A DNA stretch of 64,000 nucleotides from NCBI GenBank assembly GCA_043822665.1, contig JBDRBM010000050.1:22038-86037 (forward strand). Reading direction: 5' to 3'. Position numbers and translations under genes: made by a program. The notes below the pieces were generated by a model that saw nothing but the letters and a program-made list of their open reading frames with translations, ran no database searches and was not told where the DNA came from. This stretch comes from Candidatus Omnitrophota bacterium (GTDB lineage: Bacteria > Omnitrophota > Gorgyraeia > Gorgyraeales > Gorgyraeaceae). The stretch's first letter is position 1, and the number at the start of each line of letters is the position of its first letter. This document shows, piece by piece, positions 16,501 through 40,169 of this stretch.

Positions 16501-17496
16501 TTAGCAAATGCGCGGAAGATGTTCTCCGCTCAACATGTCAATTATCTTTTTCCCGCCTATCCTTGTCTCAAGATAAACCTTTTTGCCTTTCTCTTTTTTG
16601 ACCTCACCGATTATAGCGCTTTTCCCGCCAAGAGGGTGTTTTTTCATTTTAGATAATATCCTCGACGCGGCCTGAGAAGCAACAATGGCTACAACCTTGC
16701 CTTCATTGGCCATATATAAAGGATCCATGCCCAGCGCTTCACACAAGGCCCTTACGCTCTCTTTGACAGGCACGCTCGATTCGGCCAGGCAAATATTATA
16801 CCCTGCCTCAGCGGATATTTCATTTAAGGTAGTAGCAATACCTCCGCGCGTGGGGTCTCTCATGAACTTAATATCACTGCTTATAATGGACGCTATCAGG
16901 CTATCAAGAGAAGCGCAGTCGCTGGAAATTCTTGCCTTAAATTTTAACTCTTCTCTGGCCAGAAGCACTGCTGCGCCATGATCACCTATTGTCCCGTTTG
17001 TAATAACTTTATCGCCCGGCCTTATACGCTCTACAGAAAGTTTTGTATGTTTGTAAACCTCTCCTATCCCGCATGTAGTTATAAAAATTTTATCTACGGC
17101 GCCTTTTTCAACGACCTTAAAATCCCCTGTGACCACATCGATCCCTGCCTTCCTGCAGGCCATCCTTACCGATAACACTATCCTTTCCAGATCAGTGTAA
17201 CCAAACCCCTCCTCTACAATAACAGCGCATGACAAATATCTCGGCCTTGCGCCACTCACGCATAAATCATTTACCGTCCCGCAGATCGACAACTTTCCGA
17301 TATCCCCTCCCGGAAAAAATATTGGGCTGACAACAAATGAATCTGTTGTAAACGCGAGTTTATAGCCTGCCTTAAAAACAGCCGCGTCTCCTAATTTATT
17401 CAAAAGAGGGTTGCCCAGTTCTTTAACGAATACCTCTTTTATTAAATCATGCATTAATCTTCCGCCGCTGCCATGAGCGAGAGTTATTCTCTTCAT
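16501..17496 (-). CDS. hypE: Hydrogenase maturation carbamoyl dehydratase HypE.
   Basis: AIR-synthase-like fold, N-terminal …AHGSGG… and the diagnostic C-terminal PRIC. Confidence 0.9.
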   Translation of the reverse strand: MKRITLAHGSGGRLMHDLIKEVFVKELGNPLLNKLGDAAVFKAGYKLAFTTDSFVVSPIFFPGGDIGKLSICGTVNDLCVSGARPRYLSCAVIVEEGFGYTDLERIVLSVRMACRKAGIDVVTGDFKVVEKGAVDKIFITTCGIGEVYKHTKLSVERIRPGDKVITNGTIGDHGAAVLLAREELKFKARISSDCASLDSLIASIISSDIKFMRDPTRGGIATTLNEISAEAGYNICLAESSVPVKESVRALCEALGMDPLYMANEGKVVAIVASQAASRILSKMKKHPLGGKSAIIGEVKKEKGKKVYLETRIGGKKIIDMLSGEHLPRIC

Positions 17497-18581
17497 CTTC
17501 TATACCTATAATATGCCGCGCAGCTGCCTTCGCTTGAGACCATGCATGCGCCTTTTGGTTTTTCAGGAGCGCATGTCTTCGCGAATGAGGGGCAGTCAAA
17601 AGGCACTTTTATACCTTTAAGGATACTGCCACAGATACAGCCTGTATCAGGCCTTGTCTTTAAAGGTCTCGTCGGAAAAACCTTTTCAGCGTCAAAGCCT
17701 GAATATTTGCTATTAAGAAAAAGGCCGCTTCGCCTGATTGTCCCAATACCCCGCCATTCAGAATCTTTAATCGAAAAAACCTCGTTTATTAAAGCGAGGG
17801 CTTTTTTGTTGCCAGAATTTTTTGCCACTCTTGTGTACTGATTTTCAACTTTCACTCTTTTTAATCTTATTTGTTCTAAGATCATCCATATGCCCTGCAG
17901 TATATCCACTGGCTCAAACCCTGTTATAACGCACGGGATTTTATATCTACCTGCTATAAGCGCGTAAGGCCGGGCTCCTATAATAGTGCTCACGTGGGCT
18001 GGGCAAAGAAACCCGTCTATCTTTACGTCTCCGCCTTTTACCAGAGCCTCCATTGCGGGCAATATAACCTTATGCCCTGAAAACACAAAAAAGTTTTTCA
18101 GATCTTTCTTTCTCGTGTATACAAGACTGGCCGCAACTGTTGGAGAGGTAGTCTCAAATCCTATGCCCAGAAAAATCACTTTTTTATCTGGATTTTTTTG
18201 AGCAAGTTCTACCGCGTCCAGCACAGAATATACGATTCTGACATGTCTCCCCTTTGCCTTTTCTTCCGCTAGACTGGAATTTGAACCAGGCACTCTTGTC
18301 ATGTCTCCGAAAGTCGTTAAAATAACTTTGGGGTTCCTTGATAAGGCTATTGTCTTATCAATATAAGACTTGGGCGTGACACAGACAGGACAGCCAGGCC
18401 CTGAAATAAGATTTACGCTATCGGGCAGTATGTCTTTTATACCAAAATTACATATGGCCATTGTGTGAGTACCACACACCTCCATTATATTAAGGGGCTT
18501 TAGGCCTTCGGCCGTTCTTGATATAGCTCCCGACAGACTCTTTACGATTTTAGTATCCCTGAATTCGTCTATGTATTTCAT
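17493..18581 (-). CDS. hypD: Hydrogenase maturation factor HypD.
   Basis: CGTHT, GPGCPVC and FxxPAHVS motifs. Translationally coupled to hypE. Confidence 0.9.
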   Translation of the reverse strand: MKYIDEFRDTKIVKSLSGAISRTAEGLKPLNIMEVCGTHTMAICNFGIKDILPDSVNLISGPGCPVCVTPKSYIDKTIALSRNPKVILTTFGDMTRVPGSNSSLAEEKAKGRHVRIVYSVLDAVELAQKNPDKKVIFLGIGFETTSPTVAASLVYTRKKDLKNFFVFSGHKVILPAMEALVKGGDVKIDGFLCPAHVSTIIGARPYALIAGRYKIPCVITGFEPVDILQGIWMILEQIRLKRVKVENQYTRVAKNSGNKKALALINEVFSIKDSEWRGIGTIRRSGLFLNSKYSGFDAEKVFPTRPLKTRPDTGCICGSILKGIKVPFDCPSFAKTCAPEKPKGACMVSSEGSCAAYYRYRR

Positions 18582-18870: not shown

Positions 18871-19998
18871 CTATTTCCCCGCGGCCATAACTGCCTGACC
18901 CAAAGCAATATTCCCATCGTGGGCAGGTAAGCTTTTATGACAATACACATTGAATCTCTCCTTTACCAGAAGAAGCCTAATGCGCGCTATCAAATAGCTA
19001 TTCTGAAATACCCCGCCGCTCAGACATACTTTGTTTACCCTGTATTTCTTTCTCAATAAGAGGCAAACATCTTTTACCATATGACAAACAGCATTATGAA
19101 ATTTCAATGAAATCTCACTTTTACTCTTTTTACTTTTCAAATCCTCAACAACCCCTTTAATCACAGGCGCCCAATCAATTATAATTAATCCTTTGCTGTC
19201 TAAATACTTAAAATCGTATCCTCTCTTATAGCTGATATCCGATAGCTGACAGCTGACAGCCTTCTCTAGTTCAATCGCCGCTTCGCCTTCATAATCCGCC
19301 TTATCGCAAACCCCTGCCAGCGACGAAACAGCGTCAAATAGCCTTCCCATGCTGGATGTAAGCGGGGAATTTATCTTCTTGTCTATAATCTGAGAGATAA
19401 GCTCTATTGACTGCTTATCTAATCTGCTGACAAATTCCCCGGCCGAAATGTAAAGCCTCCTGCCGTATGTACTATAAAGGTAACTTACTGCCATGCGCCA
19501 TGGCTCTCTGACAGCTGCTTCAGCGCCTGGCATAGGGATATATTTTAAATGCGCGGCCCTTTTAAATTTTTTTACAGTACCAATAAAAAATTCTCCGCCC
19601 CAGATATTCCCGTCCAAGCCAAAACCTGTACCGTCAAACGCGACACCTATTACTCTGCCGCTAACTTCATTATCAGTTATACAGCTTGCTATGTGCGCTT
19701 CGTGGTGCTGAACATTCTTTACTTTCCCGAGCATCATCTTGTTTGCATATTTTGATGTAATATATTCGGGATGAAGATCGCAGGCTACTATATCCGGTTT
19801 AATTCTGATTCTATTTTGAACTCTCTTTATATGCCGCTGGAAATTCGCAAAATTTTCCATGTCTCCCATGTCCCCGAAAGACTCATAAAAATAGGCGTTA
19901 TCCTTGTTCAAAAAACAAAAACTACCCTTTGACTGCGCGCCCAGCGCAAGAATTGTATTGCTTTTTCGCATCGGGAGTTTTACTTTAATATGCTTCAT
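18871..19998 (-). CDS. hypF: HypF C-terminal Kae1/YgjD-like carbamoyltransferase domain only (split or truncated HypF).
   Basis: 375 aa starting at …ILALGAQSKGSFCFL… (start of the HypF Kae1-like domain), with the HEAH and FDGTGFG motifs. No acylphosphatase, Zn-finger or YrdC domains. The gene upstream is unrelated. Confidence 0.75.
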   Translation of the reverse strand: MKHIKVKLPMRKSNTILALGAQSKGSFCFLNKDNAYFYESFGDMGDMENFANFQRHIKRVQNRIRIKPDIVACDLHPEYITSKYANKMMLGKVKNVQHHEAHIASCITDNEVSGRVIGVAFDGTGFGLDGNIWGGEFFIGTVKKFKRAAHLKYIPMPGAEAAVREPWRMAVSYLYSTYGRRLYISAGEFVSRLDKQSIELISQIIDKKINSPLTSSMGRLFDAVSSLAGVCDKADYEGEAAIELEKAVSCQLSDISYKRGYDFKYLDSKGLIIIDWAPVIKGVVEDLKSKKSKSEISLKFHNAVCHMVKDVCLLLRKKYRVNKVCLSGGVFQNSYLIARIRLLLVKERFNVYCHKSLPAHDGNIALGQAVMAAGK

Positions 19999-20081: not shown

Positions 20082-21116
20082 TTATTGTAAGTTATCCTTG
20101 GCCTGCCTGGAGACAAGAGCAAGTTTATTAATAATAATGCCTGCCAGATCCTGAGAAAGCGTACCCATCCCGCAGCTTGGCGTGATAAGGGAACGGGATA
20201 ATAATAAATCCCGGGAAATCTTTTTCTTCTCCAGCTTATCTATCTCAGCGGAAAGCCTGAAAAAAAGCGTCTCTTCTGTCTCTTTTACGACTGCTTCAGA
20301 CGTCGGGATTATGCCCCACGCAAGATAGCCGCCTCTTTTTAAAAACCTTGTTATCTCATCGGGGTAAAGTGAAAGGCCCTCGGCATAGGCATAGGCATCA
20401 AAATTTATAACATCAACTTCTGTCTCCGCAAGGAGCGACCAGTCTGTATTGCCACAACAATGAATCGCGCTCAATGCGCCTTTGGAATGTATCTTCTCTA
20501 TGATGGAATTCAGCATCAAAATAACCTCCTGGCGCTCTATGCTCACAAAGCTCGAACCAAAACTTGTCAGGTAAGGCTCATCGATGAAAATGATAACATT
20601 GTTGGAAATTTCTTTCAATCTCGCTATCTGAAAACCAGCCTTTATCTCCAGTAGTTTGATAAAACCTTCCTTAAGCATGTCATTATATATAATCGATTTA
20701 CCTTTCTCATCAACCACGCTGAGGCCAAAACTGACAGGACCTGTGATCTGGCCTTTTACATAACCAGGATTAAATCCTCCTGCCAGCTCAAGAAATTTAT
20801 AAAATCCTTCCGCTGATTCTCTTGAAAGACCAAGCAGCTCATAGTCACCCGAGAGGTATGTCTCATATATCTTTCCCAGCCCTTCGCTCAGATCTTTTGT
20901 AGTATCTACGAATATTTTCCGATTTTTCTCATCTATTATTAAGGCTGGCAGGCCCTCGGCAAACTGGACATACATGCTTTCTTTAAATCCCTTTTTGGGA
21001 AGCTGGGGCCAGAAAGGTATATCAAATCCAGCGCATATCTCCCTGACACCTTTTATGGCGTCCAGATACGGCAGACTGCCTATGCCGGTAGTTAAAAATC
21101 TTTCCTTTATTTTCAT
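20082..21116 (-). CDS. Cobalamin-independent methionine synthase C-terminal-like / URO-D-like methyltransferase family protein.
   Basis: 344 aa TIM-barrel-like sequence with the Zn-ligand pattern (H…C…E…C) of the MetE C-domain family. Family-level call only. Confidence 0.45.
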   Translation of the reverse strand: MKIKERFLTTGIGSLPYLDAIKGVREICAGFDIPFWPQLPKKGFKESMYVQFAEGLPALIIDEKNRKIFVDTTKDLSEGLGKIYETYLSGDYELLGLSRESAEGFYKFLELAGGFNPGYVKGQITGPVSFGLSVVDEKGKSIIYNDMLKEGFIKLLEIKAGFQIARLKEISNNVIIFIDEPYLTSFGSSFVSIERQEVILMLNSIIEKIHSKGALSAIHCCGNTDWSLLAETEVDVINFDAYAYAEGLSLYPDEITRFLKRGGYLAWGIIPTSEAVVKETEETLFFRLSAEIDKLEKKKISRDLLLSRSLITPSCGMGTLSQDLAGIIINKLALVSRQAKDNLQ

Positions 21117-21186: not shown

Positions 21187-21224
21187 CACAATGTAGGTGA
21201 CCCTTAAGGGTCACCTACATTGTG
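21187..21224. repeat. Perfect 38-bp palindrome CACAATGTAGGTGACCCTT|AAGGGTCACCTACATTGTG.
   Basis: Lies in the intergenic region upstream of the metE-like gene. The sequence CTTATCCACAATGTAGGTGACCCTTAAGGGTCACCTAC is shared with the 61562 copy in opposite orientation. Confidence 0.75.
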
Positions 21225-21558
21225 CCCTTGCCAGAGCAAAAAGACGAACAAGCGCAGACGAGTTATAAATCGCATCGGACAACGGAAGTTCTCAGTGCCG
21301 AATGATCTCAGGCTGACTTAGATATAGCATTGGCTTATTTCATCTTCAGGTGCTTTCCTAACTCGCTTATAACGTATTTTCGCGTCATGCGGCCCTGCGT
21401 ATCATATCTGTAAACTATCGCGTTATCCTTGTCCAAAAAATACATCACATTGCTTTCTCCTGAAAACAATAAATTAGCGGGAAGTAACGGCTGGCAGGTT
21501 ACCCTTTTTGAAAAAACTGAGAAAAGGAGCCATGCGCAGATAAAACCTATCGCGAATA

Positions 21559-22230
21559 TCAGGGCCTTATTTTCTTTAACCATCTTATCCTCCTTCTTCT
21601 TCTATCCCTATTATAACAAACAACCCCCAGGACATTAATGCCTGAAAGTTCTTCTATTATTGAAGGGTTTGTTTTTACAGCAAGATCTTTTTTTATGCGG
21701 CTGGCATAATTAAATATCACGCCGGCTATCGTTATGCCTTCAGCCTTTAGCATGCCTATGGTCATAATCGTGTGGTTTATTGTGCCGAGGTTCGGCCTTG
21801 CGACTAGGATAACAGGCAATTTCATTTTTGATATCATATCGCGCACATAAAATATTCTTTTCCCTGTCTTTTTTAAAGGTACCATCAATCCGCCAATGCC
21901 TTCTACTATCATAATATCTCTGTTCGAGCAAAGCTCCTCAAAACTCTGCCATATAATACTCAAATCTATTTTCTTTTTTTCCAGTCTCCCTGCCGCAAGA
22001 GGCGCCAGCGGATATCTTAATGCCACCGGGTTTATAAGATTTAAATCTGCCTTGAAATAGGCGGCTTTTTTTAAAATCCTGGCGTCAGAACAAGCCCTCC
22101 TGACACCTGTTGCCACTGGTTTCATCACAGCTACCTTTAGCCCTTTACGCGAGAAATACCTTGCCAGGCACGCCGCGACTTCTGTCTTTCCAACGCCTGT
22201 ATCAGTCCCTGTTATAAAAAATCCCCTCAT
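21559..22230 (-). CDS. bioD: Dethiobiotin synthetase.
   Basis: N-terminal P-loop GTDTGVGKT and overall BioD length/sequence. Confidence 0.85.
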   Translation of the reverse strand: MRGFFITGTDTGVGKTEVAACLARYFSRKGLKVAVMKPVATGVRRACSDARILKKAAYFKADLNLINPVALRYPLAPLAAGRLEKKKIDLSIIWQSFEELCSNRDIMIVEGIGGLMVPLKKTGKRIFYVRDMISKMKLPVILVARPNLGTINHTIMTIGMLKAEGITIAGVIFNYASRIKKDLAVKTNPSIIEELSGINVLGVVCYNRDRRRRRIRWLKKIRP

Positions 22231-23389
22231 TCTTTAGCCTCCGGAAAGCATCTATGGCTTTATCAATATGGGTATCTTTATGCGTGGCCATTATAGAAAC
22301 CCTTATCCTGCATTTATTTTTAGGCACTGTAGGCGGCCTTACGCCGGGCGCAAATATACCCATATCAAATAATCTTTCAGCTGTCCTCATTGTACTGGAA
22401 ACATCTCCTGTCAATACAGGCACTATTTGAGTCTCCGATCCCATTGTGTCAAAACCCAAACCTTTTAAGCCTGTTTTAAATCTTTCCGCGTTTTGCCATA
22501 ATCTTTTTCTTAAATCTTTATCTTTTATTGCTATTTCTATGGCCTTTATGCAACCTGAGACTATTGCGGGAGGCAGCCCAGTGGTATATATAAAAGATCT
22601 TGCCCTGTTACGTATATACTCTACAAGAGATCTGGATCCTGCTATATACCCGCCTAACGAACCAAATGCCTTACTGAGCGTCCCCATCTGTATATCCACA
22701 CCTTCTTTTATGCCGAAATGCTCGCATGTGCCCCTGCCTGTTTCACCAAGAACGCCGGCAGCATGAGCATCGTCTATCATTAACATCGCGCTAAATTTTT
22801 TTGCGATCCTCGCCAGATCAGGAATAGGCGCTATATCGCCATCCATACTGAAAACACCGTCTGTAATAATCAGTTTTTTCTTATACGCTGTTTCTTTTTT
22901 TAGGATCTCTTCTAATTTTCTTAGATTTTTATGCGGATAAACCCTGAGCCTTGCGCGGCTCAGCCTGACGCCGTCAAAGATACTGGCATGATTCAGTTTG
23001 TCGCATATCACAAGGTCATCTTCCCGGACAAGAGAGCTTATGGCGCCTACATTAGTCATATACCCGGTCGGAAAAACAATCGAGCGTTCTGTGTTTTTGA
23101 AATCAGCTATTTCCCGCTCAAGTTCCTCATGCAGGCTCATATTGCCTGAAATAAGGCGGGATGCGCAGGAGCCTGCGCCAAATTCTTTTACAGCATCAAT
23201 CTGAGCCTTTATTACTTCTGGATGGTTTGCTAAACCGAGATAATTATTAGAGGAAAAAAGGATTACTTCTCGTCCGTCGATTTTTACAACAGGGCCCTGG
23301 GCTGAATCAATTCTCTTCATCTCCTTGAAGAGCCCGAGTTTCCTTAATTCATCCAGCTCCTGCTGTAGCAATAAATCCAAGCCAACCAT
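22202..23389 (-). CDS. bioF: 8-amino-7-oxononanoate synthase (class II aminotransferase).
   Basis: PLP-enzyme motifs (…DDAHAAGVLG…, Lys in TLSKAFG) and the bio operon context. Confidence 0.8.
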   Translation of the reverse strand: MVGLDLLLQQELDELRKLGLFKEMKRIDSAQGPVVKIDGREVILFSSNNYLGLANHPEVIKAQIDAVKEFGAGSCASRLISGNMSLHEELEREIADFKNTERSIVFPTGYMTNVGAISSLVREDDLVICDKLNHASIFDGVRLSRARLRVYPHKNLRKLEEILKKETAYKKKLIITDGVFSMDGDIAPIPDLARIAKKFSAMLMIDDAHAAGVLGETGRGTCEHFGIKEGVDIQMGTLSKAFGSLGGYIAGSRSLVEYIRNRARSFIYTTGLPPAIVSGCIKAIEIAIKDKDLRKRLWQNAERFKTGLKGLGFDTMGSETQIVPVLTGDVSSTMRTAERLFDMGIFAPGVRPPTVPKNKCRIRVSIMATHKDTHIDKAIDAFRRLKNEGIFYNRD

Positions 23390-23406
23390 AATTAAAAAAT
23401 TCTACC

Positions 23407-24381
23407 CTATCTTACTACCATGGGCATGAATTCTGTTGAGCCAAACATGCCGTATATTCTGTGCTTCTTAAGCCAAAGCGCTCGTTTCATATAGCCAAGA
23501 GCAGGCCCTATCACATTGGCTGCCATGGAAGTCTCATCTCCGAGTATAAATCTGTGGCAGGATCGTTTACCTTCAAAGGTAACGCCTGTAAGTGTCATTG
23601 TGGTAGAAACCGGTTTTTTAGCATGCCGTGTATCCATCACACCGCCTACTGAAACTTTATCAAGAGAATCAATAACACCTGCTTTTTTAAGCAGTATATC
23701 GTCAGCGTGTTCCATATCGCGAAGAACAAGCCTTCCATCTGTCTTATTCAAGAGTTGTTCCACCTCTTCATCAGTCATTCTTTTTGCCCTGTTAACTGTA
23801 TACCCCGGCAGATGCGCGATATCTTCTCTGATTGTTGCCTTGTACGCGTCCCAGTTGGAAATACCTACTCCCCACCAAATATTCACATCTTCGATCTTTG
23901 TAAACGACTGCGCCGCCAAAACTGCCGCGGCTGACAAAATGCCAGGTGTCGCGCCACATCCGGCTATATACACGCTCTTATTCCTCTTTAATCCCGGGCT
24001 CAATCTCATCATCAACCTCATTGCGCTCGTACGTTTTAACGCACAGGTAAAGACTCCGCTATAACCTGCTTTTATAAAGCGTTTTAACACGCCGGGGATG
24101 AATTCATTTGGCAGATTTGGAAGAGCGGCAAAAATTCCGTCATATCTATCTTTGAGCTTTATAATCTCGCGTATCGAATCCTTTGAAGGTTTCATCTTAC
24201 TAAGGTCATTTACAGTTATTCCGTCCTTACAATATAAATATCCGCGCGAATCGCAAATAGCTACAACTTTTGCCTCTCTTTTTTTTGCCGCGACTTCAAG
24301 ACACGCCCTGCCAATGCCTCCTGCTCCCAGCACCGCAATCTTAATCTTCTTCATAATCCCTCCTATTAAGTTCAAAACCAA
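23407..24381 (-). CDS. Saccharopine-dehydrogenase-like NAD(P)-Rossmann protein. Candidate BioU-type (BioA-replacing) DAPA-forming enzyme.
   Basis: N-terminal IAVLGAGGIGRA dinucleotide-binding motif. 324 aa. It is embedded between bioB and bioF in an operon that lacks bioA. The functional assignment is inference from context. Confidence 0.5.
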   Translation of the reverse strand: MVLNLIGGIMKKIKIAVLGAGGIGRACLEVAAKKREAKVVAICDSRGYLYCKDGITVNDLSKMKPSKDSIREIIKLKDRYDGIFAALPNLPNEFIPGVLKRFIKAGYSGVFTCALKRTSAMRLMMRLSPGLKRNKSVYIAGCGATPGILSAAAVLAAQSFTKIEDVNIWWGVGISNWDAYKATIREDIAHLPGYTVNRAKRMTDEEVEQLLNKTDGRLVLRDMEHADDILLKKAGVIDSLDKVSVGGVMDTRHAKKPVSTTMTLTGVTFEGKRSCHRFILGDETSMAANVIGPALGYMKRALWLKKHRIYGMFGSTEFMPMVVR

Positions 24382-25327
24382 GATCCTTTACCATCTGTAA
24401 ATCCTCTTCCACAGACCTTCCTTTTGTCGTGAGATACCCTCCTATGATCATGCCGTTTGCTCCTGCCATAAATGCCATGGCCTGTAAGTCCCGCAGGCCC
24501 TGCTCTCTGCCGCCTGCTACCTTTATTATTGCTTTAGGCAAGATCAGCCTGAAGACCGCTATTGTCTTAATCGCCTCTAATGGCTCAACGGGTTTAACAT
24601 GCTCGAGCGGGGTGCCTTTTCCCGGATTAAAAATATTTACCGGAACACAGCCTATGTTCATCTCCTTCAACGTAAATGCCAGATTTAATCTTTCTTCAGG
24701 GCCTTCTCCCAGCCCTATTATACCGCCGCAACACGGCCTTACTCCTGTTTTTTTCAGCATACCAACCATGCTTAGCCTGCTGTCATAGGAATGCGTAGTG
24801 CATATATTTTTGTAAAATCCCCGCGACGTTTCCAGATTATGGTTAAACCTGTCAATCCCCAGCGCCTTTAACTCTCTAATCATCCCTATGTTAAGCTTGC
24901 CGAGAGAACAATCTACCTTGATACGAACTATTTTATTTATCTTCCTTATAGCCTCTTTTATTTTTTCAAATTCTTCTTCGGTAGGGCCTTTTCCGCTTAT
25001 TACAATGCAAAAATTTGATGCGCCTTGTTTTTTCGCGGCCTTGGCTGAGCCTATCATCTTACTGACACTTACCAGCGGATAAGTCTTGCGCCCTGTCTTA
25101 TATCTCGACGACTGGCTGCAGAATCCGCAATCTTCCGAACATAATCCGCTCTTGGCGTTAATCAAAGAACACAGATCCATCTTATTGCCGCAAAATTTCC
25201 TCCGTATTAAATCAGCAGTATGCATCAGGAGTAATAAATCTTCGCTTTTGGCGGCCAGGAGTTTCTCTGCTTCTCTAAATCCTAACTCTTTCCCGGAAAG
25301 TATTTCTTCAAGAATAGATTTAATCAT
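24341..25327 (-). CDS. bioB: Biotin synthase (radical SAM).
   Basis: CSEDCGFC radical-SAM motif and BioB-like length and sequence. Confidence 0.85.
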   Translation of the reverse strand: MIKSILEEILSGKELGFREAEKLLAAKSEDLLLLMHTADLIRRKFCGNKMDLCSLINAKSGLCSEDCGFCSQSSRYKTGRKTYPLVSVSKMIGSAKAAKKQGASNFCIVISGKGPTEEEFEKIKEAIRKINKIVRIKVDCSLGKLNIGMIRELKALGIDRFNHNLETSRGFYKNICTTHSYDSRLSMVGMLKKTGVRPCCGGIIGLGEGPEERLNLAFTLKEMNIGCVPVNIFNPGKGTPLEHVKPVEPLEAIKTIAVFRLILPKAIIKVAGGREQGLRDLQAMAFMAGANGMIIGGYLTTKGRSVEEDLQMVKDLGFELNRRDYEED

Positions 25328-25333: not shown

Positions 25334-25376
25334 CTTAACTTGACGAAACTTACATTGTAAGAATCGTTAAGTTAAG
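25334..25376. promoter_or_regulatory. Nested inverted repeats immediately upstream of bioB (candidate operator).
   Basis: The outer arms cttaacttgacg / cgttaagttaag have 1 mismatch. They enclose a perfect 13-bp palindrome cttacaTtgtaag, 7-50 bp upstream of the bioB start codon. Confidence 0.35.
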
Positions 25377-25442
25377 GAAGGTAAGCTTTGGATATAGCTA
25401 TATTTTACATTGAATATCTAAATTGTCAACCTAAGCATAAAA

Positions 25443-26444
25443 TCAGGTTAACGATCGGCAGGAATTGCGCTCTATGAGTTCAACCGGCAGGACTATCTTC
25501 TTACAGCCCTTGCTCTTGCCGGTTAATATGTTATGCAATGTTTCTGTAGCTACCATGGCCATTTTATGGAGCGGTTGTCTCATAGTAGTAATAGGAATGG
25601 GAGAAAAACTCAAAGCCAAGGGATTATCATCAAAACCCATTACAGACATATCTCCGGGTACACTGACTCCGGCTTCCAGGCAGACCTGTATAACACCAAC
25701 AGCCATTTCATCGCTTGCCGCGAATATGGCCGTGGGAGGTTTTTTTAATTTTATAAGCTCTTTTGTCGCTTTTATAGCTGAAGCTCTACCAAAATCTCCA
25801 TAACTGATATAGCTGCCTTTTTTTTCTATACTGTTTTTCTCCAAGGCCTTAATATAACCGTCCAACCTGTCTATGGCTACCTGAGATTTCAGTTCCCCTG
25901 TGATAGTAGCGATCATGGAATGACCCTGTTTTATAAGATACTCTGTGGCCTTAAAGCCTGCGTTAAAATTGTCTACGGCCACGCAGGATACAGGCAGATC
26001 TTTTGTCAGATAATTCATAATAACGCACGGCACTTTTCTCTCCAGTATATTATCCACCTGCTCCTCGTTACCTATAATATCAGAAAAAATGACCCCTCCT
26101 ACCGCTGACAGATTCAGGAAACTTTCGCCATTAGTAATATGCAGTAAGAGGTCCAGATTTAGTCTTTCGACAGCCAAACCCACGCCCTGCAGGACCTGCA
26201 GCGCGTAGAAAGAATGGAATATGTCAGTATATCTCGGTATAATCAGGCCTATGGCGTTATTGTATTTTGACGCCAGGCGCTGCGCGCTGACATTAGGATT
26301 GAACTTCAGATTTTTTACAGCGGCTTCGACCTTTATCTTATTCGATCTTTTTACGGTAGACAGTTTATTCATGACTCTTGAAACAGTTGCTATTGAAACT
26401 CCGGCTTCCCTGGCAACGTCTTTTATATTTACTATTTTATTCAT
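25443..26444 (-). CDS. LacI-family transcriptional regulator.
   Basis: N-terminal HTH (IKDVAREAGVSIATVSRVMN) followed by a periplasmic-binding-protein-like domain. Confidence 0.85.
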   Translation of the reverse strand: MNKIVNIKDVAREAGVSIATVSRVMNKLSTVKRSNKIKVEAAVKNLKFNPNVSAQRLASKYNNAIGLIIPRYTDIFHSFYALQVLQGVGLAVERLNLDLLLHITNGESFLNLSAVGGVIFSDIIGNEEQVDNILERKVPCVIMNYLTKDLPVSCVAVDNFNAGFKATEYLIKQGHSMIATITGELKSQVAIDRLDGYIKALEKNSIEKKGSYISYGDFGRASAIKATKELIKLKKPPTAIFAASDEMAVGVIQVCLEAGVSVPGDMSVMGFDDNPLALSFSPIPITTMRQPLHKMAMVATETLHNILTGKSKGCKKIVLPVELIERNSCRSLT

Positions 26445-26590: not shown

Positions 26591-28099
26591 TCATTGTAAT
26601 CTCTCGCCTTTCTGGCTTAGGATACTCGCTGTCACAAAAATTAAAAGATTCTTTCTCTGGACATTGTCTGAATCTTTTCTAAACAACCCTCCCAATAAAG
26701 GTATATCTCCCAGAAACGGCACCTTGGTCCGCGTATTTGTCCTTGTCTCCTTAACCAGGCCGCCAAGGACAATAGTATCGCCGTTTTTCACAACTATATT
26801 AGTATTCAAATTCCTTGTGGTAAACTTCGGTAATTTTACTTCTCCGCTAAAAGTAAAGGCATCAGGGGTTGCCTCGCTCACCTCTGGATTTAATGTCAAT
26901 GTTATGGTCTCTTTATCAGCGCCCACGCTGGGCGTCACTTTAAGTATAATGCCTATATCCCTTGTTTCAAACCCCTGCGGCACATTTACGAACCTTGTCT
27001 CCCTCACGCCGTCAACCACGTCAAGAAAAGTCCCGTTGTTATTCAGGTCCTGTTTTATCAGGGTCGGCTCATATCTGGATGGATATACAAATTCGTCAGC
27101 TATCTCTATTGTAGCAGTCTGATTATTCAAGGTTGTAATCTTCGGGGCTGAAAGCGTCTTGAGTTTTGTCTTTCTCTGAAGGGCATGCAGCACTGCTGAA
27201 AACTGGGGTTTTGTAAGCATACCCTGATATGTAAGGTTAAGCCCTTCATTGGGCGCGCCAGTAAAGGCCGAAAAACTTGAGCCTGTACCGCCTGATAATT
27301 GCGTCACTGCCGCACCATCATCCTTAAAAAACACCAACGGAGTATCCAGTGTTAGATTAACGCCCAATTCGCTCAGGTCTGTCACATCTACCTCTATGAA
27401 TCTCGTCTCTATGAGGATCTGGGCCGCGTCTACATCAAGGTTATAAAGAATCTTTTCTACAACCTTTAAATTAGACGGCGTGTTCGTCACTATCAGGGCG
27501 CCTGTGCGTTCATCTAAATTTATCTTGGAGTCACTCGGCCATGCCACAGCATTCTCAAGCACGTCCTTAATTGTATTTACCTTTGATATGCTGGCTACAC
27601 CGCCGAGTCCACTGCTTATGTCACCGGAAACACTCTGATCGAATTCAGTAAACATGGCCAGGCCCTGATTCAAATAATAGATCCTGGTCTCTGGCGTCTC
27701 TTCTTCCATTGCGTCAAATGTATCCACCCACACAGCATTCTTCTCAACCCTATAGGCCAGCCCTTCATTCCTGAAAATATACTTCAAAAGGCCCTCGAGC
27801 TGCATATCTTTCACGCGTATGGTCACTTTTTTTTCATCCGGTTTAACGCTATTGCCTAAAATGATGTTCACGCCTGTCGCGTCCGAGAGAAAATCAATAA
27901 CATAGCCAAGGCTTACGTCCCTGAAATCCACGGTTATGAGAGTCTCGAGCTTCTTTCTTATCTCGGGCACCAGGACCACAGAAAACTTATCTACATCAGA
28001 ACCGTCTCTAAGTGACCTTACTTCATAAGCGTATACAGACACTATACCGGCAAAAAAGACAGCTAATAAAAATACTGTAAAGACGCGCCTTTTTATCAT
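26591..28099 (-). CDS. Secretin (PilQ/GspD family), short form.
   Basis: Signal peptide. C-terminal secretin domain with …NGDTIVLGGLVKETRTNTRTKVPFLGDIPLLGGLFR…. Confidence 0.8.
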   Translation of the reverse strand: MIKRRVFTVFLLAVFFAGIVSVYAYEVRSLRDGSDVDKFSVVLVPEIRKKLETLITVDFRDVSLGYVIDFLSDATGVNIILGNSVKPDEKKVTIRVKDMQLEGLLKYIFRNEGLAYRVEKNAVWVDTFDAMEEETPETRIYYLNQGLAMFTEFDQSVSGDISSGLGGVASISKVNTIKDVLENAVAWPSDSKINLDERTGALIVTNTPSNLKVVEKILYNLDVDAAQILIETRFIEVDVTDLSELGVNLTLDTPLVFFKDDGAAVTQLSGGTGSSFSAFTGAPNEGLNLTYQGMLTKPQFSAVLHALQRKTKLKTLSAPKITTLNNQTATIEIADEFVYPSRYEPTLIKQDLNNNGTFLDVVDGVRETRFVNVPQGFETRDIGIILKVTPSVGADKETITLTLNPEVSEATPDAFTFSGEVKLPKFTTRNLNTNIVVKNGDTIVLGGLVKETRTNTRTKVPFLGDIPLLGGLFRKDSDNVQRKNLLIFVTASILSQKGERLQ

Positions 28100-30723
28100 T
28101 GTTCCCGCCCTACCTGGTCAGCTTGCGGCGAAACCGGTACGCTTGCCATTATATTGTCCTCTTTATTTAGAACAGTGGCTGTAACAAATATTAAAAGATT
28201 CCTGCGCTCTTTGCTGTCTATGCTTTTCCTGAATAACCCGCCTACAAACGGCAGATCCCCCAGCAATGGAACCTTTGTCTTTATATTGGTATCTGTCTCT
28301 TTTATAAGCCCTCCCAGCATCACTGTCTCTCCGCTCTCAACTATAACACTCGTCGAGAGATTTCTTGTCTTGAATTGCGGTATTGAAACATCTCCTGAAT
28401 AGGAAAAAGAACCTGAATCCTCGCTTACTTCCGGAGTCAATGCCAGGGTGATAGTCTTATTGTCCGCGCCAACGCTCGGTTTAACATGTAATAAGATGCC
28501 TACGTCTCTGGTTACGAAATCCTGTGGTATATTAGCCCATTCTGTCTCACCCGCGTCATCAAAATCTCCATCTCCGTTTATATCGAATTGCACAAGACTA
28601 ACCTCATACCTTGTAGGATAGATATATTCGTCTATAACTTCTATTGTCGCTCTCTGATTATTTAACGTTGTTATCCTCGGCGCGGACAAAGTCTTCACAT
28701 TCTGCTTTTCATTTAGGGCATGCATCACGGCCTGAAACTGCGGGTGGCTCAGGATCCCCTGGTATGTAAGATTAAAGCCTTCGTCTGATCTTGTAAAATC
28801 TGAAAAATCCACTCCGCCTCCGGAAGAAAATCCATGTATATTCTGTTTTGAGTTAGTCTGTTTAACCCCCCAATCACTATTGAGCTTCCATTCTATGCCA
28901 AGTTCATCCGTATCAGTAACCTTTACCTCTAAAAACCTGGCCTCGACCAATACCTGCACAGGCGTAACATCCAATGTATAAAGAAGATTCTCTATTGTTT
29001 CGAGGTTTGAAGGTATATTGCTTATTATCAGGGCTCCTGTGCGTTCATCCAGCGTCAATTTAGAGTCCTTTGGCCAATCCACGGCATTCTCGAGGATATC
29101 TTTAACCGTCTTCACCTCCGTAGAGGATGCGCTGGAGTCTTTACCGCCAGAAGAAACATTAAAGTCAGTAAACCTGCCTATGCCCTGGTTCAAAAAATAT
29201 ACCCTGGTATCTATGCTTTCATTTTTCAGCTCTTCTTTGGTCGCGACCCATACCGCGTCCTCTTCTATCCTGTAAACAAGATCTTGGGCTTTCAATATAT
29301 ACCTCAGGGCATCCTCAAGCGGCATATCTTTTATCTTCATGGTCACCTTTTTTTCAGACATCTCTATCTCACTTGAAGGCACTATATTTACGCCTGTGGC
29401 ATCTGATAAAAAAGAAAGCACATAATCAAGCTCCACATCTTTAAAATCCACGCTTATGGGTATCCCGAGCCTCTGCCTCACCTCAGGCACTTTCACGATG
29501 GGGGTTATCTTCTTCTTGTTTTCCAGAGTCCCTGTCTTTATCTCAGGAAGTAAATGTTTCTTCGCTACTTCCAGAAGCATCTTTTCTTCTGTGATTTCCC
29601 TGGCTCTACCCAATGCCTTTTCTTCAAGATGTATTTTCTGCAATTCTATATAATGCCCTATATCTTTAAATCTCTCGTTTTCAGGGAATTCTTCCATGGC
29701 CTGCGTCAGTGTTTTCTCCGCATCCTCAAAGTTATTGTCTCTTACCTGCTGGCGTATGGTATTCATCAACCCGTCTAATTTAGCTATCTTCTCCCTTATT
29801 ATCCGATCTTTAAGCCTTGCCTCGAAAATCTTCCTAAGTCTCGTTTTCTGCCTGTCCATCTTCTCTTTCTGCTTTAGCCTTAACTCTTCTTTAAGCGCCA
29901 GGCGTTTCTTTTCCTGTTCTAATTCCATATTAGCCTCCCTGGCCGCCTCCATCCTGACCAATAATTCCTTTTCTTCGTTTTCTTTTATCTGGGCCTGGGC
30001 CCTTTCTATAAAAGAATCTGACTGGCTGGCTAGTCTATTTTCCCGATCCAATTCCTTGACTCTTTTAAATTCCACTATGGCAGCCGGGTAATTTTGTTCG
30101 TTATAATATCCAAGGGCCCTCTCGTATGTGGACCGTACCTTTTTTTCCAGCTCAAGCGCCTTTTTTTTCTCAGTTTCTTCGGCAGAGCTTCTTTTTAACT
30201 CCTCTTCGCGTTTAATGCGCTTTTCTTCCTCTTCGCTGGCCTTTCTTACATTCTTCTCTGCCTCCTGCTGAACAACCTTTTCCGCTTCGCTTATAACATC
30301 GTTTTTCATCCTGGCCCATTTTCTATCCTCCAGAACAAGTCTCTCGCTGAGCCTGTCCTTTGATTTCTCAATATAGATCTCGGCAAAAGGCGTGAAATAT
30401 GATTCGTTCTGGGATTTTTCTATAGCCATCAGGTTTTCAAACACAGCAATAGCTTCTTCATATTTACCGCTTTCAAAAAGAGACATGGCTTTTTCAAAAT
30501 ATTTGCGAAGATCGACCCTTGAATACATCGCGGCCCTATTATTGTAAGCCGACGGCGAAGCCAAGGCAAAGGCCTGACTAAAAAATATGGACGAAAATAC
30601 GCCCACTAGCATAAAAACGCTTATTTTACATAATAATTTATGGTATGGAATTTCAAAAAGCAAAATTCCAACCACTGAAAATCTCAGAAAGTTATCGCCG
30701 AAAGCGATTTTCTTGTTTTTCAT
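28096..30723 (-). CDS. Secretin (PilQ/GspD family) with ~400-aa N-terminal TPR/Glu-Lys-rich coiled-coil extension.
   Basis: C-terminal secretin domain (…SGETVMLGGLIKETDTNIKTKVPLLGDLPFVGGLFR…). The N-terminal half is TPR-like followed by an E/K/R-rich low-complexity helix. Confidence 0.8.
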   Translation of the reverse strand: MKNKKIAFGDNFLRFSVVGILLFEIPYHKLLCKISVFMLVGVFSSIFFSQAFALASPSAYNNRAAMYSRVDLRKYFEKAMSLFESGKYEEAIAVFENLMAIEKSQNESYFTPFAEIYIEKSKDRLSERLVLEDRKWARMKNDVISEAEKVVQQEAEKNVRKASEEEEKRIKREEELKRSSAEETEKKKALELEKKVRSTYERALGYYNEQNYPAAIVEFKRVKELDRENRLASQSDSFIERAQAQIKENEEKELLVRMEAAREANMELEQEKKRLALKEELRLKQKEKMDRQKTRLRKIFEARLKDRIIREKIAKLDGLMNTIRQQVRDNNFEDAEKTLTQAMEEFPENERFKDIGHYIELQKIHLEEKALGRAREITEEKMLLEVAKKHLLPEIKTGTLENKKKITPIVKVPEVRQRLGIPISVDFKDVELDYVLSFLSDATGVNIVPSSEIEMSEKKVTMKIKDMPLEDALRYILKAQDLVYRIEEDAVWVATKEELKNESIDTRVYFLNQGIGRFTDFNVSSGGKDSSASSTEVKTVKDILENAVDWPKDSKLTLDERTGALIISNIPSNLETIENLLYTLDVTPVQVLVEARFLEVKVTDTDELGIEWKLNSDWGVKQTNSKQNIHGFSSGGGVDFSDFTRSDEGFNLTYQGILSHPQFQAVMHALNEKQNVKTLSAPRITTLNNQRATIEVIDEYIYPTRYEVSLVQFDINGDGDFDDAGETEWANIPQDFVTRDVGILLHVKPSVGADNKTITLALTPEVSEDSGSFSYSGDVSIPQFKTRNLSTSVIVESGETVMLGGLIKETDTNIKTKVPLLGDLPFVGGLFRKSIDSKERRNLLIFVTATVLNKEDNIMASVPVSPQADQVGREQ

Positions 30724-31286
30724 TTACCTTTAGACTCCGGCCCTTCATCTTTAGCGCTGCTTTTCTCTTTATCCTCTCTTTTGACAGCGCTCAATATTAC
30801 TTCTTCGCCGCCTTTCTTCTTCAGGACAACACTGCTCTCGTCTATGCTGGATACAAGAAAATCTCCAACCATGTCACCTTCCTGGACAAAGGAGCTTTTG
30901 CCTGTATTCTGATCCTCTATAATCACCATGACCTTTGCGCCCATCATCACCCTGCCTTTATATTTAAGTACGGCCTTTTTAGGGAGCTCTTTAACAGGTA
31001 TAGGTTCGGCCTTTTTAATCTTTTCTTCAGGCTTTATCCTGAAAAACAGGCTTCTGTCCAGGAGACTTTTATAGTTTTCGATATCTTCAGCAACTTTCAT
31101 CTTTACAAAATCCCATTTATCTCTTTCTTCTTTTATCTTGACCTTTGACCTCTTAGAAACCAGCTCTATATCTTGTTTCAACTCTTCTACCGCTGCCTTT
31201 TTATTGCCCTGCGAGGTAAGGCCAAGTATCAAAATAGCGGCAAAGATTGCTGCAAGAAGCCAAAATATTATCTTTTCTTTAATCAT
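30720..31286 (-). CDS. PilP-like pilot/periplasmic protein (putative).
   Basis: Signal-anchor followed by a charged linker and a C-terminal beta-sandwich-like segment (…KGRVMMGAKVMVIIEDQNTGKSSFVQEGDMVGDFLVSSIDESSVVL…). Lies between the PilO-like and secretin genes. Confidence 0.4.
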   Translation of the reverse strand: MIKEKIIFWLLAAIFAAILILGLTSQGNKKAAVEELKQDIELVSKRSKVKIKEERDKWDFVKMKVAEDIENYKSLLDRSLFFRIKPEEKIKKAEPIPVKELPKKAVLKYKGRVMMGAKVMVIIEDQNTGKSSFVQEGDMVGDFLVSSIDESSVVLKKKGGEEVILSAVKREDKEKSSAKDEGPESKGK

Positions 31287-32046
31287 TATCCTTGGCCCTC
31301 GTTATCTTAAACGTGCTCAATACAAGACTGGCTTCTATCTGATCAACACCTGTTTCGCTGCTTCTGATGTGTACTTCTTTCACTGAAACAGGCGGGCTGG
31401 CATTTTTTAGCCCCACCAGAAGCCCTATAAAGGCCTCGGTACCGGTCTTTATAGATATCTGCACAGGTAATTCTGTATAAAACACCTTTTTGCTTAAGGG
31501 TTCTATATAATCTATTGCCTTGAGCGGTTTTATAGCCGAAAATTCTACGCTATTGTTTTTTAATAGAGTGTCAACTGCCAGCTCAACTATCTCAAGCTGT
31601 CTCAATAAAGAGTCTACCATATTTTCTTTTGGAAGCCCGTCTCCGAATCCAAGATTTTGAGGAATCTTGATGTCTCTGGAGGATGCCTCTTCTGAGAACT
31701 TCTTTATACAACCGTGGAGCCTTTCTATGAAATACAGGCCTGCCTCGCTATTTGTCTCAGAAATGCGTGTCTTCTGCGGGTCAATAAAATCCTCGAGCTC
31801 TTCTAATTTCGACTTCATGCCAGTTTCTTCTTTCTTGAGTTTCTCAAAACCTTCTCTTGAAGGAAGGGTGCCTGTGCGGGCAATATACTTTTTCATCTCT
31901 AAGGTCTTGCGTTCAAGTTCTTCATCCAATATTGAACTGCCTTCTTTTAAAAATGGGCTCAGGACAAAAAAGTAGAGCCCCGCTGCAACCGCAAGCGTCA
32001 GTATGCCCTGTTTAAAAATAGTCTTTTCTCTGGCTGTTTTGAACAT
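31279..32046 (-). CDS. PilO/GspM-like inner-membrane assembly protein (putative).
   Basis: Single N-terminal TM, coiled-coil, then a periplasmic domain. Lies between the PilMN and PilP-like genes. Confidence 0.4.
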   Translation of the reverse strand: MFKTAREKTIFKQGILTLAVAAGLYFFVLSPFLKEGSSILDEELERKTLEMKKYIARTGTLPSREGFEKLKKEETGMKSKLEELEDFIDPQKTRISETNSEAGLYFIERLHGCIKKFSEEASSRDIKIPQNLGFGDGLPKENMVDSLLRQLEIVELAVDTLLKNNSVEFSAIKPLKAIDYIEPLSKKVFYTELPVQISIKTGTEAFIGLLVGLKNASPPVSVKEVHIRSSETGVDQIEASLVLSTFKITRAKDND

Positions 32047-32048
32047 GA

Positions 32049-33572
32049 TTAACTCTCTCCAGTCACAACATCCATAGTAATGCTGAATTTCACTATCTCT
32101 TCACCGGTCTTCTCGTCCGTATCTATGGAAGAAGATATGGGTTTGACTTCTCTAAGCCGGGACGAGGACTTCAGGCTCGAGACAAAATTATTAACAGCCT
32201 GGTACGACAATGCCTTCCCTCCTAAATCTAATCTGCCAAGTCCACTCTGTTCCAGCGACATAATCCCAGAGACATCTGTAATCCAGACATCTTTAGGTAA
32301 TATATCCGAAATGGCCTTAAACACAGAGAGCCAAATAGCCCTTGAGCCTTGGGTCTGGTATAAGATATCTGTTTTTGCCTTTAAAATATCTTCCCTATCC
32401 TGCAGTTGTTTTATCTTTGGCTCGTATGTATTATACAGATCCAGCATCTTGTCGATCTCGTCAAGCTTCACCCTTTTTACAGCATAATCCTGTCTCATAA
32501 AAACAGAAAAACTTATCACTACCAGCGCGGCCATTATAATGGAAAGTCTGGTATACAGGTTCTTCTGCCTTGATATACGGGATACAGAAAGTATCTCTTT
32601 AAGAAAATTTATCTCTATCTTAAGAGATGTAAGGCCGCGCAGCGCCAAGCCAACTGCTATCGAAAACTGGCTCTTGATTCCTTTTTCCTGCAGGCTCGCA
32701 AAGACCTCTTTGGAGACCCGAAGTTTTCTGAACGGGTCAAATGTCTTTGGTTTTACATTGAGTCTTTCGGCTATGCGGGATTCAAGCCCGTCTATAGCGC
32801 TGCCCCCGCCTGTCAGGATTAATTCGTCGAGCTTTTTCTCTCCCTTAAGCTCTTCTCCTTCCTGCATGAAATAATATTCTATGGAACGCTCTATCTCTCC
32901 GGCAAGTTCATCTATGCCCTGGTCTTTTGCCTCTTCAATGCGCTCGGCCGCTATAGGAAAACTCCTTACCCAGATATTGCCTTTTTTAAATATAACAAGG
33001 TTTGTGGCCTTTGTGCCTATATCCAGGATAATACCCAGGCCTTCTTCCTTGTAATCCTCATTAAATACCATACAGTTATACAGGCTAAGGGGGGATACAT
33101 CGATAACTCTAGTGGATAACTTTATGCTGTTTAATTTAGAGGTCATTTCATCTACCAGATTCTTTTTTATGGCGGCGATAACCGCCTTCTTTGTGGCCTT
33201 TGAGCCTGTATCAAGTAAACACCAGTCCCATGCGACCTCGTTCATGGAAAAAGGTATCTGGTTCTGCGCCTCGAACCTCATGGTCTGCCTTAACTTATCT
33301 TCTTTGGCCTGAAGGAGCTTTACAAACCTGATAAAGACAGATTGGCCAGCGGCGCAAATATTAACACTGCGGCCTTTTATATTATTCTCTGATAATAACT
33401 GCGATATCAATTGAAATGTTATTTTGTCCCTGTCCAGCTTCACGTCTTTAGGGATCTCCTTTATGCCAAATTTATTTAATATAATATTATCCCCTGACCT
33501 CTTCAGTTCTACGAGCTTTATAAAATGACTGCCTATATCCAGCCCTATAGAGCTTTTACTGAACTTTCGCAT
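32049..33572 (-). CDS. PilM (actin-like ATPase fold) - PilN fusion protein.
   Basis: N-terminal IGLDIGSHFIKLVEL (PilM/FtsA-like) through ~aa 330. A TM helix follows (LSIIMAALVVISFSVF) and then a PilN-like periplasmic domain. Confidence 0.65.
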   Translation of the reverse strand: MRKFSKSSIGLDIGSHFIKLVELKRSGDNIILNKFGIKEIPKDVKLDRDKITFQLISQLLSENNIKGRSVNICAAGQSVFIRFVKLLQAKEDKLRQTMRFEAQNQIPFSMNEVAWDWCLLDTGSKATKKAVIAAIKKNLVDEMTSKLNSIKLSTRVIDVSPLSLYNCMVFNEDYKEEGLGIILDIGTKATNLVIFKKGNIWVRSFPIAAERIEEAKDQGIDELAGEIERSIEYYFMQEGEELKGEKKLDELILTGGGSAIDGLESRIAERLNVKPKTFDPFRKLRVSKEVFASLQEKGIKSQFSIAVGLALRGLTSLKIEINFLKEILSVSRISRQKNLYTRLSIIMAALVVISFSVFMRQDYAVKRVKLDEIDKMLDLYNTYEPKIKQLQDREDILKAKTDILYQTQGSRAIWLSVFKAISDILPKDVWITDVSGIMSLEQSGLGRLDLGGKALSYQAVNNFVSSLKSSSRLREVKPISSSIDTDEKTGEEIVKFSITMDVVTGES

Positions 33573-39368: not shown

Positions 39369-40043
39369 TTATTTATTTTTTATCTTTGCAATAAGATCCT
39401 GTATCAGCTTGCCTGCAATGTCCTTTGAGCCCAGTCCTACCGCTATAGCAAAAGCAAGACCCATGGAAGCCAATATGATGTTTATGGCAAGGTTTAATAC
39501 AGACGACGCGATATTGAGCTGTTCCAGAGTTATTATCACGGCAAATATCATGATAACTGTCTGTGTGACCTGTCCGAGGAATTTTGCCTGTGGTACTCCG
39601 GAATTACTGGAAGCTGTGCGCACTACTGTGCCTATCATACTGGAGAAAAATATACCCAAGGCCAGGATAAACACAGCCGCGATTACGTTGGGTATATACA
39701 GAATAACTTTATCCAGCAATGAAGCTGCAACTGTCATGCCAAAGGCATTTAAGGCAGTCATGAATACCAATAACATTACAAGCCAATAGATGAGCACGCC
39801 TATTAATTCAGATAACGTGTGCCTTATGCCGCCCCGTCTCAATACATCGGTAAGCCCTGACTTTTCACTGGCTGTATCCAGCTGGATAAGCTTCAATAGT
39901 TTTATCACTACATTCTTAAGGATCCCGGCTATGATCCATCCTACAATAAGTATAACAAATACACCTATAAGTGTAGGTAAAAACCCGGCCACCCTTGCCA
40001 GCATCTCTTTTACTGGCTCCATAACTACAAAATTCCAGTCCAT
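39369..40043 (-). CDS. Small polytopic membrane protein with conserved TM-helix repeats (MscS-associated family-like).
   Basis: 224 aa with repeated hydrophobic helix motif. Family call is tentative. Confidence 0.45.
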   Translation of the reverse strand: MDWNFVVMEPVKEMLARVAGFLPTLIGVFVILIVGWIIAGILKNVVIKLLKLIQLDTASEKSGLTDVLRRGGIRHTLSELIGVLIYWLVMLLVFMTALNAFGMTVAASLLDKVILYIPNVIAAVFILALGIFFSSMIGTVVRTASSNSGVPQAKFLGQVTQTVIMIFAVIITLEQLNIASSVLNLAINIILASMGLAFAIAVGLGSKDIAGKLIQDLIAKIKNK

Positions 40044-40169
40044 ATAACCCTCCCTTCTTTCTAAAACAAGAAGTATACATTACCAATATGCAATCGTCAA
40101 GGGCACCCCCTTCAAATCCCTTCAAAACAAAGCGCGGCTAAAGCTCACCGTTGTGGTTGCAGGTCAGGA

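Follow-up and report, generated by a model that had tools for sequence, protein, structure and literature searches.

The stretch analysed here, 64 kb from a Candidatus Omnitrophota metagenome-assembled genome (MAG) and called the window below, very probably carries a biotin ring-assembly operon, bioB-bioU-bioF-bioD plus a small open reading frame (ORF), in which BioU replaces BioA. BioU has been known since 2020, with crystal structures and an NCBIfam model of its own, and belongs to a small number of documented enzymes that give up a residue of their own in making a cofactor. In the searchable literature it is treated as a cyanobacterial protein; here a clear ortholog is found in an uncultured, non-photosynthetic member of the Omnitrophota. 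The original prediction, made from the sequence without database searches, had recognized a four-gene biotin operon and proposed its second gene, hereafter gene X, as a BioU candidate. The enzyme is therefore of a type already known, and it is the lineage that is new; the gain is in annotation and in a wider distribution, with no new chemistry.

Gene X is a BioU-family ortholog by full-length homology, catalytic residues, nucleotide-binding loop and predicted fold. In a phmmer search of the PDB it aligned over its full length with Slr0355, the BioU of Synechocystis, at E 5.2e-97 (X residues 11-324, in the numbering of a 324-residue product, with residues 19-343 of the 6ir4 chain), and the two are about 52% identical in the trimmed alignment columns. 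The match to the NCBIfam BioU profile NF047886 spans all of its 323 positions (1-323; E 1.3e-115, 385.9 bits). The GAGGIG at residues 10-15 of X is the NAD(P)-binding Rossmann loop (GxGGxG) that is kept family-wide. In Slr0355 Lys124's epsilon-amino group is ligated to 8-amino-7-oxononanoate (AON) and consumed in a three-step suicide mechanism (PMC12704756, PMC12915131). This donor is marked in two PDB mutant chains, 6itd and 6k37, in which the Lys of ALKRTSA is Ala and the titles name K124A; a third, 6k38, has Ala for the His of DMEHADD, its title naming H233A. X Lys107 (Lys116 in the 324-residue numbering) aligns with Lys124, and X His216 with His233. All 39 homologs compared, taken from Omnitrophota, cyanobacteria, Melainabacteria, Sumerlaeota/BRC1, Poribacteria, a Woesearchaeota-labelled MAG and haloarchaea, have the Lys, the His, the DMEHADD motif and the GxGGxG loop unchanged. 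In all, 51 residues are invariant in this set, including Lys107, the core M-E-H-A-D-D-I and the dinucleotide-binding loop.

The predicted structure gives the same answer. An AlphaFold model of X, built from the 39-sequence alignment, has a mean predicted local distance difference test score (pLDDT) of 94 and a predicted template modelling score (pTM) of 0.90. Compared with known structures using Foldseek, the model superposes on the BioU entries 6itd, 6k37, 6ir4, 6k36 and 6k38 with template modelling (TM) scores of 0.96-0.97, root-mean-square deviations (rmsd) of 1.2-1.4 A and E 1e-47, and the next fold after BioU has a TM score of 0.59 at 16% identity. Other folds in the list (meso-diaminopimelate (meso-DAP) and D-amino-acid dehydrogenases, L-lysine dehydrogenase (LysDH), amine dehydrogenases, carboxyspermidine dehydrogenase and DapB) lie at TM 0.43-0.61 and 10-18% identity. 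Among the named rivals, DapB scores 0.43, LysDH 0.58 and meso-DAP dehydrogenase about 0.59, at 11-18% identity. At the sequence level, matches of X to other dehydrogenase families are confined to its first ~115 residues, mostly the Rossmann stretch, at E ~1e-4 or weaker. Pfam reports a short N-terminal Rossmann match alone (ELFV_dehydrog, residues 10-75) and no match of X to Aminotran_3 (PF00202). The candidate proposed from sequence is thus upheld, both in its comparison with Slr0355, DapB and LysDH and in the conservation of the catalytic Lys. Since X belongs to the BioU family, the fallback offered with it, that synthesis of diaminopelargonic acid (DAPA) would be unexplained in this organism, does not arise.

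BioU forms a compact family, set well apart from others: when 1.84 billion cluster representatives were searched exhaustively with HMMER, only 14 clusters came up at E<=1e-30, of which about six are full-length. The most distant full-length relatives are P0129 (37% identity), in which the catalytic Lys is Asp, and P0131 (30%), in which the catalytic His is Tyr; these are the sole full-length relatives without one of the catalytic residues. The Lys-His pair is thus a mark of the functional family and not of the general fold; on its residues X is placed well inside the functional BioU family. P0129 and P0131 may be paralogs with a different, non-suicide function.

The genes around X are those of biotin ring assembly; the four overlap or abut within 21559-25327, and a small ORF adjoins them:

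24341-25327, minus strand: bioB, biotin synthase, 328 aa; TIGR00433, 390 bits against a cutoff of 225; Radical_SAM and BATS domains.
23407-24354, minus strand: bioU (gene X), 315 aa; BioU profile, Slr0355 alignment, fold, and catalytic Lys and His.
22202-23389, minus strand: bioF, 8-amino-7-oxononanoate synthase, 395 aa; TIGR00858, 474.6 bits against 426.45; Aminotran_1_2 domain.
21559-22230, minus strand: bioD, dethiobiotin synthase, 223 aa; TIGR00347, 178.7 bits against 83.3.
21335-21583, minus strand: 82-aa ORF, conserved, with a hydrophobic helix at the N-terminus; shares 25 nt with the end of bioD.

The calls for bioB, bioF and bioD rest on the curated cutoffs of NCBIfam equivalog models, which each gene passes, so that the four-gene operon stands as first described. 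For bioF, TIGR00858 was the sole BioF/Kbl-type model passed, the Kbl models falling under their own cutoffs. Between X and bioF lie 17 nt, and bioF shares 29 nt with bioD. X does have the GAGGIGRA motif ascribed to it; the length of 324 aa, from a TTG at 24381 that would overlap bioB by 41 nt, did not hold up as well. Since an AGGAGG ribosome-binding site lies 7 nt upstream of an ATG at 24354, and nearly all close homologs of X are 315 aa long, we take this ATG as the start and 315 aa as the length, with an overlap of 14 nt with bioB. The database protein identical to X at 100% (P0001) carries the NCBI name "saccharopine dehydrogenase-like oxidoreductase".

BioB itself has the expected residues: C63xxxC67xxC70, Cys107 and the Arg of VAGGRE. 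Its Cys107, at +37 relative to the radical-SAM motif, classes it as Type I under the criterion of PMC10813225, where the motifs of Type I and Type II biotin synthases are defined. It also has Cys53, equivalent to E. coli Ser43, which is the swapped-cysteine position of Type II; the lineage is probably anaerobic.

No class III aminotransferase accompanies these genes, as the original prediction had noted. Pfam scans of the submitted window ORFs of at least 150 aa gave no Aminotran_3 match, and six-frame tblastn with E. coli BioA, a query validated against the PDB at 995 bits, gave zero window matches even at E<=10. Over 470 kb, comprising the window and 39 related loci, nothing BioA-like was found, the best tblastn E-value being 1.3. 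Cyanobacteria carry either BioU or BioA (PMC12903740). The rest of this genome is presumed to lack bioA as well.

The pathway that we propose would run as follows. A single sigma-70-type promoter would transcribe the whole operon. BioF would condense a pimeloyl thioester with alanine to give AON, also called KAPA (7-keto-8-aminopelargonic acid), and BioU, not BioA, would provide the 7-amino group. By homology to Synechocystis BioU, Lys107 of X would first be reductively ligated to AON with NAD(P)H. The Lys107-AON conjugate would then be carboxylated, and an NAD(P)+-dependent oxidation would free the carbamic acid of 7,8-diaminononanoate (DAN), leaving the enzyme without its lysine amine. Because that amine is lost on product release, each BioU molecule would act once. 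BioD would close the ureido ring, and BioB would then insert sulfur.

Conserved gene order ties X to this pathway from another side. Ten Omnitrophota loci show the same series of LacI-family gene, bioB, bioU, bioF, bioD, MetE-like gene and HypF-C-like gene, or that part of it which the contig covers, and the order bioB-bioU-bioF-bioD recurs in three haloarchaea (L033, L035 and L038 among the related loci). Melainabacteria have a bioU-bioD pair, and in a synteny check bioU was solitary in cyanobacteria, Desantisbacteria, Nitrospirota and others, among them unclassified homologs. The region upstream of bioB and the end of the operon contain four further features:

25425-25452, minus strand: candidate BirA operator, tcGTTAACC-N14-GGTTGACaa, overlapping the -35 box.
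25402-25429, minus strand: sigma-70-type promoter, TTGACA-16-TAAAAT, 11 of 12 consensus positions.
25334-25376, minus strand: 43-bp imperfect palindrome in the bioB 5' untranslated region, two 21-nt arms, 86% complementary.
21187-21224, minus strand: perfect hairpin with 19-nt arms downstream of the 82-aa ORF, arms 100% complementary, -35.4 kcal/mol, z = -7.2.

The operator fits the BirA consensus TTGTAAACC-[N14/15]-GGTTTACAA and is near-identical to predicted bioB sites of Geobacter and Desulfuromonas (PMC545781, Tables 1 and 11). It occurs once in the window, where 0.32 chance matches would be expected at up to two mismatches, and it is kept in 6-7 related loci, lying at the same place in L002-L005, L007 and L008. 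The promoter is the best site in the 5.8 kb scanned, with both hexamers kept in eight of eight aligned Omnitrophota loci. The bio operon is thus probably repressed by BirA, to judge from this site. Moreover, an operon context with a BirA-type operator supports a biotin role for X independently of the Synechocystis experiments.

The left half-site of the operator covers the last codons and the TGA stop of a LacI-family regulator gene (25443-26444, minus strand), which in all close Omnitrophota relatives is the immediate upstream neighbour of bioB. We rejected this gene as the primary biotin regulator: with a BirA-type operator the conserved intergenic sequence is already accounted for, a LacI-type operator was not seen, and the adjacency to bioB is confined to close relatives, being missing in L009. 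The 43-bp palindrome was likewise rejected as an operator or attenuator, as it is not conserved. It is missing in L002-L007, and L008 has an unrelated hairpin of ~90 nt at the same spot. It is confined to this genome and is probably an inserted hairpin element, and the two cases suggest that small palindromic elements insert repeatedly into the bioB leader. Rfam, at gathering thresholds, found no riboswitch or other known RNA in the window.

At the other end, the 19-nt-arm hairpin has no clear U-tract and could be a terminator or an RNA-stabilizing element. Because this strong hairpin is followed by a separate promoter-like site (TTGACC-17-TAGAAT, 21153-21125) ahead of the MetE-like gene, the 3' boundary of the operon is probably at 21187-21224. 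The 82-aa ORF, which lies inside that boundary, gave no match in Pfam or NCBIfam scans. It is found at 60-70% identity, in the same bioD-overlapping position, in L001-L004, L006 and L007, making seven genomes with the window, and is missing at L009 and L031. It is probably a fifth operon gene in this clade. That this membrane-anchored product, translationally coupled to bioD, is a so far unrecognized accessory of the BioU route is an unlikely further step.

Several findings weigh against the replacement of BioA by BioU in this organism. The bioA search covered the 64-kb window of this genome, and a 2026 preprint on 176 complete Omnitrophota genomes reports bioA (K00833) matches in 66 of them. 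No gene for BirA with a DNA-binding domain was seen in the window, nor was any biotin-protein ligase found there. The pimeloyl-arm genes bioC, bioH, bioW, bioI and bioZ were not found in the window either. Biochemistry for BioU from outside the cyanobacteria was not found in the searchable literature. Finally, X at 385.9 bits is under the curated NF047886 equivalog cutoff of 600. The last point was calibrated with other family members. Synechocystis salina (636 bits) and Acaryochloris (615) pass; Poribacteria (493), BRC1 (440), Caenarcaniphilales (419), the Woesearchaeota-labelled MAG (393), Melainabacteria (372) and a haloarchaeon (341) fail, as does Gloeobacterales at 575, for which the sequence scanned was N-terminally truncated (profile positions 11-323). 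Since crown cyanobacteria alone pass, the cutoff delimits crown cyanobacteria and not the catalytic family. It is because X lies under this cutoff that NCBI gives its product the generic oxidoreductase name.

The lack of pimeloyl-arm genes in the window or beside the operon bears on a separate proposal, that the organism carries the late pathway alone and imports pimelate or a later intermediate. This would fit the host-dependent lifestyle proposed for Omnitrophota, which the literature describes as partly host-dependent with incomplete cofactor pathways, and we regard it as possible, if on balance doubtful. Biotin-prototrophic cyanobacteria are likewise without every known early-pathway gene (PMC12903740), and the search here examined 64 kb of the genome. 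Moreover, import concerns the supply of substrate and not the function of X, and is compatible with BioU taking the place of BioA. One methyltransferase in the window (41114-41836) was considered as BioC and rejected, at 54 bits against a cutoff of 185 and inside a low-GC glycosyltransferase island.

A second alternative accepts X as a member of the BioU family and makes it a multi-turnover enzyme, such as an amine dehydrogenase carrying out the reductive amination of AON from ammonia or some free amine donor, Lys107 being catalytic and not consumed. The nearest non-BioU structural neighbours are indeed multi-turnover amine, D-amino-acid and meso-DAP dehydrogenases, and no assay of a BioU from outside the cyanobacteria is known from the searchable literature. 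However, X is 52% identical to the characterized enzyme with a near-identical predicted fold (TM 0.97), and the equivalents of Lys124 and His233, within 51 strictly invariant residues, are kept across clades with no hint of an altered active site; we consider this alternative very unlikely. The weakest alternative, that X is a generic saccharopine-dehydrogenase-like, DapB, LysDH or meso-DAP-type oxidoreductase unrelated to biotin while a bioA elsewhere makes DAPA, can point to the NCBI name, the lone Pfam match and the 64-kb extent of the bioA search, but its chances are close to nil and as a reading of X it is effectively refuted, given N-terminal matches at E ~1e-4 or weaker and TM 0.43-0.61 for the generic oxidoreductases against the 1e-97 level and TM 0.97 for BioU, both catalytic residues in place, and a position between bioB and bioF kept from Omnitrophota to haloarchaea.

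A suicide BioU thus remains the preferred explanation for X, and its homologs are widespread. A large protein database contains 3,389 of them at E<=1e-10, those with a named source coming from Omnitrophota, Poribacteria, Desantisbacteria, Firestonebacteria and Nitrospirota. A scan of GTDB species representatives gave 38 full-length loci and one weak partial match (L039); these loci belong to Omnitrophota (some labelled Planctomycetia), the Woesearchaeota-labelled MAG, BRC1/Sumerlaeota, Poribacteria, cyanobacteria, Melainabacteria/Vampirovibrio/Caenarcaniphilales and haloarchaea. The prediction that BioU extends the pathway to this lineage is correct, but this lineage is not alone: in at least eight others there are BioU homologs carrying both catalytic residues, and haloarchaea show the same operon order too. 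In a neighbour-joining (NJ) tree, computed quickly from distances and with no support values, the proteins of Omnitrophota group in a clade of their own apart from the cyanobacterial ones; its sister is the Woesearchaeota-labelled sequence. This separate clade, together with an identity of ~52%, argues against a recent transfer from cyanobacteria.

Two of the related loci deserve comment. The Woesearchaeota-labelled locus (L010:2461-8741) contains bioB, an LCM-like methyltransferase, a metallo-beta-lactamase-fold protein, bioF, bioU, bioD and a biotin-protein ligase; the sister position of its BioU to the Omnitrophota clade suggests horizontal transfer or a mis-binned contig. In Natronorubrum sulfidifaciens (L038:6001-7253), bioU is split into two overlapping ORF pieces, through a frameshift or pseudogene formation or through a sequencing error.

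These results bear on how Omnitrophota biotin pathways are read. The 2026 preprint counted bioF in 79, bioA in 66, bioD in 74 and bioB in 98 of its 176 genomes; it scored these four genes alone, found no genome with the full set, and took this as support for host dependence. Our analysis suggests that missed BioU accounts for at least part of these "partial" pathways. We lean slightly toward a broader view, in which the BioU route is the standard route to DAPA in much of Omnitrophota as well as in haloarchaea, Sumerlaeota, Poribacteria, Melainabacteria and others. On this view, the published finding of no full biotin pathway in any complete Omnitrophota genome, taken as a sign of host dependence, would for the most part be an artefact of annotation, since surveys based on KEGG orthology (KO) and the NCBI BioU model both miss these proteins. 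With bioU recognized, many of the "partial" pathways would probably count as complete late pathways, and inferences of auxotrophy and lifestyle would shift.

Downstream of the operon, the MetE-like gene (20082-21116, minus strand, 344 aa) has no Pfam match; it weakly matches the methionine-synthase model PRK00957 (E 2e-8), and the PDB contains no sequence relative. In Omnitrophota it keeps its place right behind the bio operon; we rejected it as an operon member for its own promoter-like site past the strong hairpin. The HypF homolog that follows (18871-19998, minus strand) has the C-terminal Kae1-like domains alone, without the acylphosphatase, zinc-finger and YrdC parts. It too was rejected as an operon member, being grouped instead with hypD (17493-18581) and hypE (16501-17496), which follow it, and with a membrane-bound Mbh/Mrp-type hydrogenase cluster at ~2.4-14.6 kb.

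On the other side, upstream of the LacI-family gene, 26591-33572 (minus strand) holds secretin, PilM/PilN-like, GspC-like and T2SS-M-like genes of a type II secretion or type IV pilus system. The low-GC island mentioned above (40000-44600, 31-35% GC versus ~42% elsewhere) encodes a Methyltransf_11 protein, a PMT_2 glycosyltransferase and a family 9 heptosyltransferase; among NCBIfam models the methyltransferase matches BioC best, at the sub-cutoff score already given. The minus-strand ORF at 45156-51212, of 2018 aa, is a ribonucleotide reductase large subunit interrupted by inteins, with Hint/intein splicing domains, two LAGLIDADG homing-endonuclease domains and a C-terminal TSCPD domain. An aerotolerance-type cluster of BatA, BatD, MoxR and VWA genes is found at 52-60 kb.

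Among known systems, the dehydrogenases of the 1dap, 5loa, 3abi and 6g1m type (meso-DAP, D-amino-acid, L-lysine and native amine dehydrogenases) share with X a Rossmann domain, a substrate/dimerization domain and NAD(P)-dependent C-N redox chemistry. They differ in being multi-turnover enzymes without the LKR(T/S) donor lysine and without DMEHADD, and match X at TM 0.5-0.6, 10-18% identity and rmsd 7-13 A. BioA acts at the same step, converting AON to DAN, and has a comparable place in its operon; in contrast to X, it is a catalytic, S-adenosylmethionine-dependent class III transaminase with pyridoxal phosphate, unrelated in sequence, fold and cofactor.

The haloarchaeal clusters of Natronolimnohabitans and Natronorubrum have an identical gene order and both catalytic residues. 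Their BioU proteins are archaeal, longer (354-369 aa) and 44-45% identical to X, and form the deepest branch of the NJ tree; the LacI-family gene, the 82-aa ORF and the MetE-like neighbour were not found alongside them.

The characterized system of Synechocystis sp. PCC 6803 differs in setting. X sits in a tightly coupled operon with a BirA-type operator, whereas cyanobacterial bioU is solitary; the X host is non-photosynthetic and probably anaerobic, with an encoded membrane-bound hydrogenase, and the Slr0355 host is a cyanobacterium. X is not nested among the cyanobacterial proteins, scores under the NF047886 cutoff (386 versus 600), and lacks a ~10-residue insertion that Slr0355 has around residues 50-65. 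As in the Slr0355 system, bioF, bioD and bioB are present and bioA was not found, here on the scale of the window. The enzymes themselves share the GxGGxG loop, the donor equivalent to Lys124, the His equivalent to His233, the DMEHADD motif and, by the model of X, one fold.

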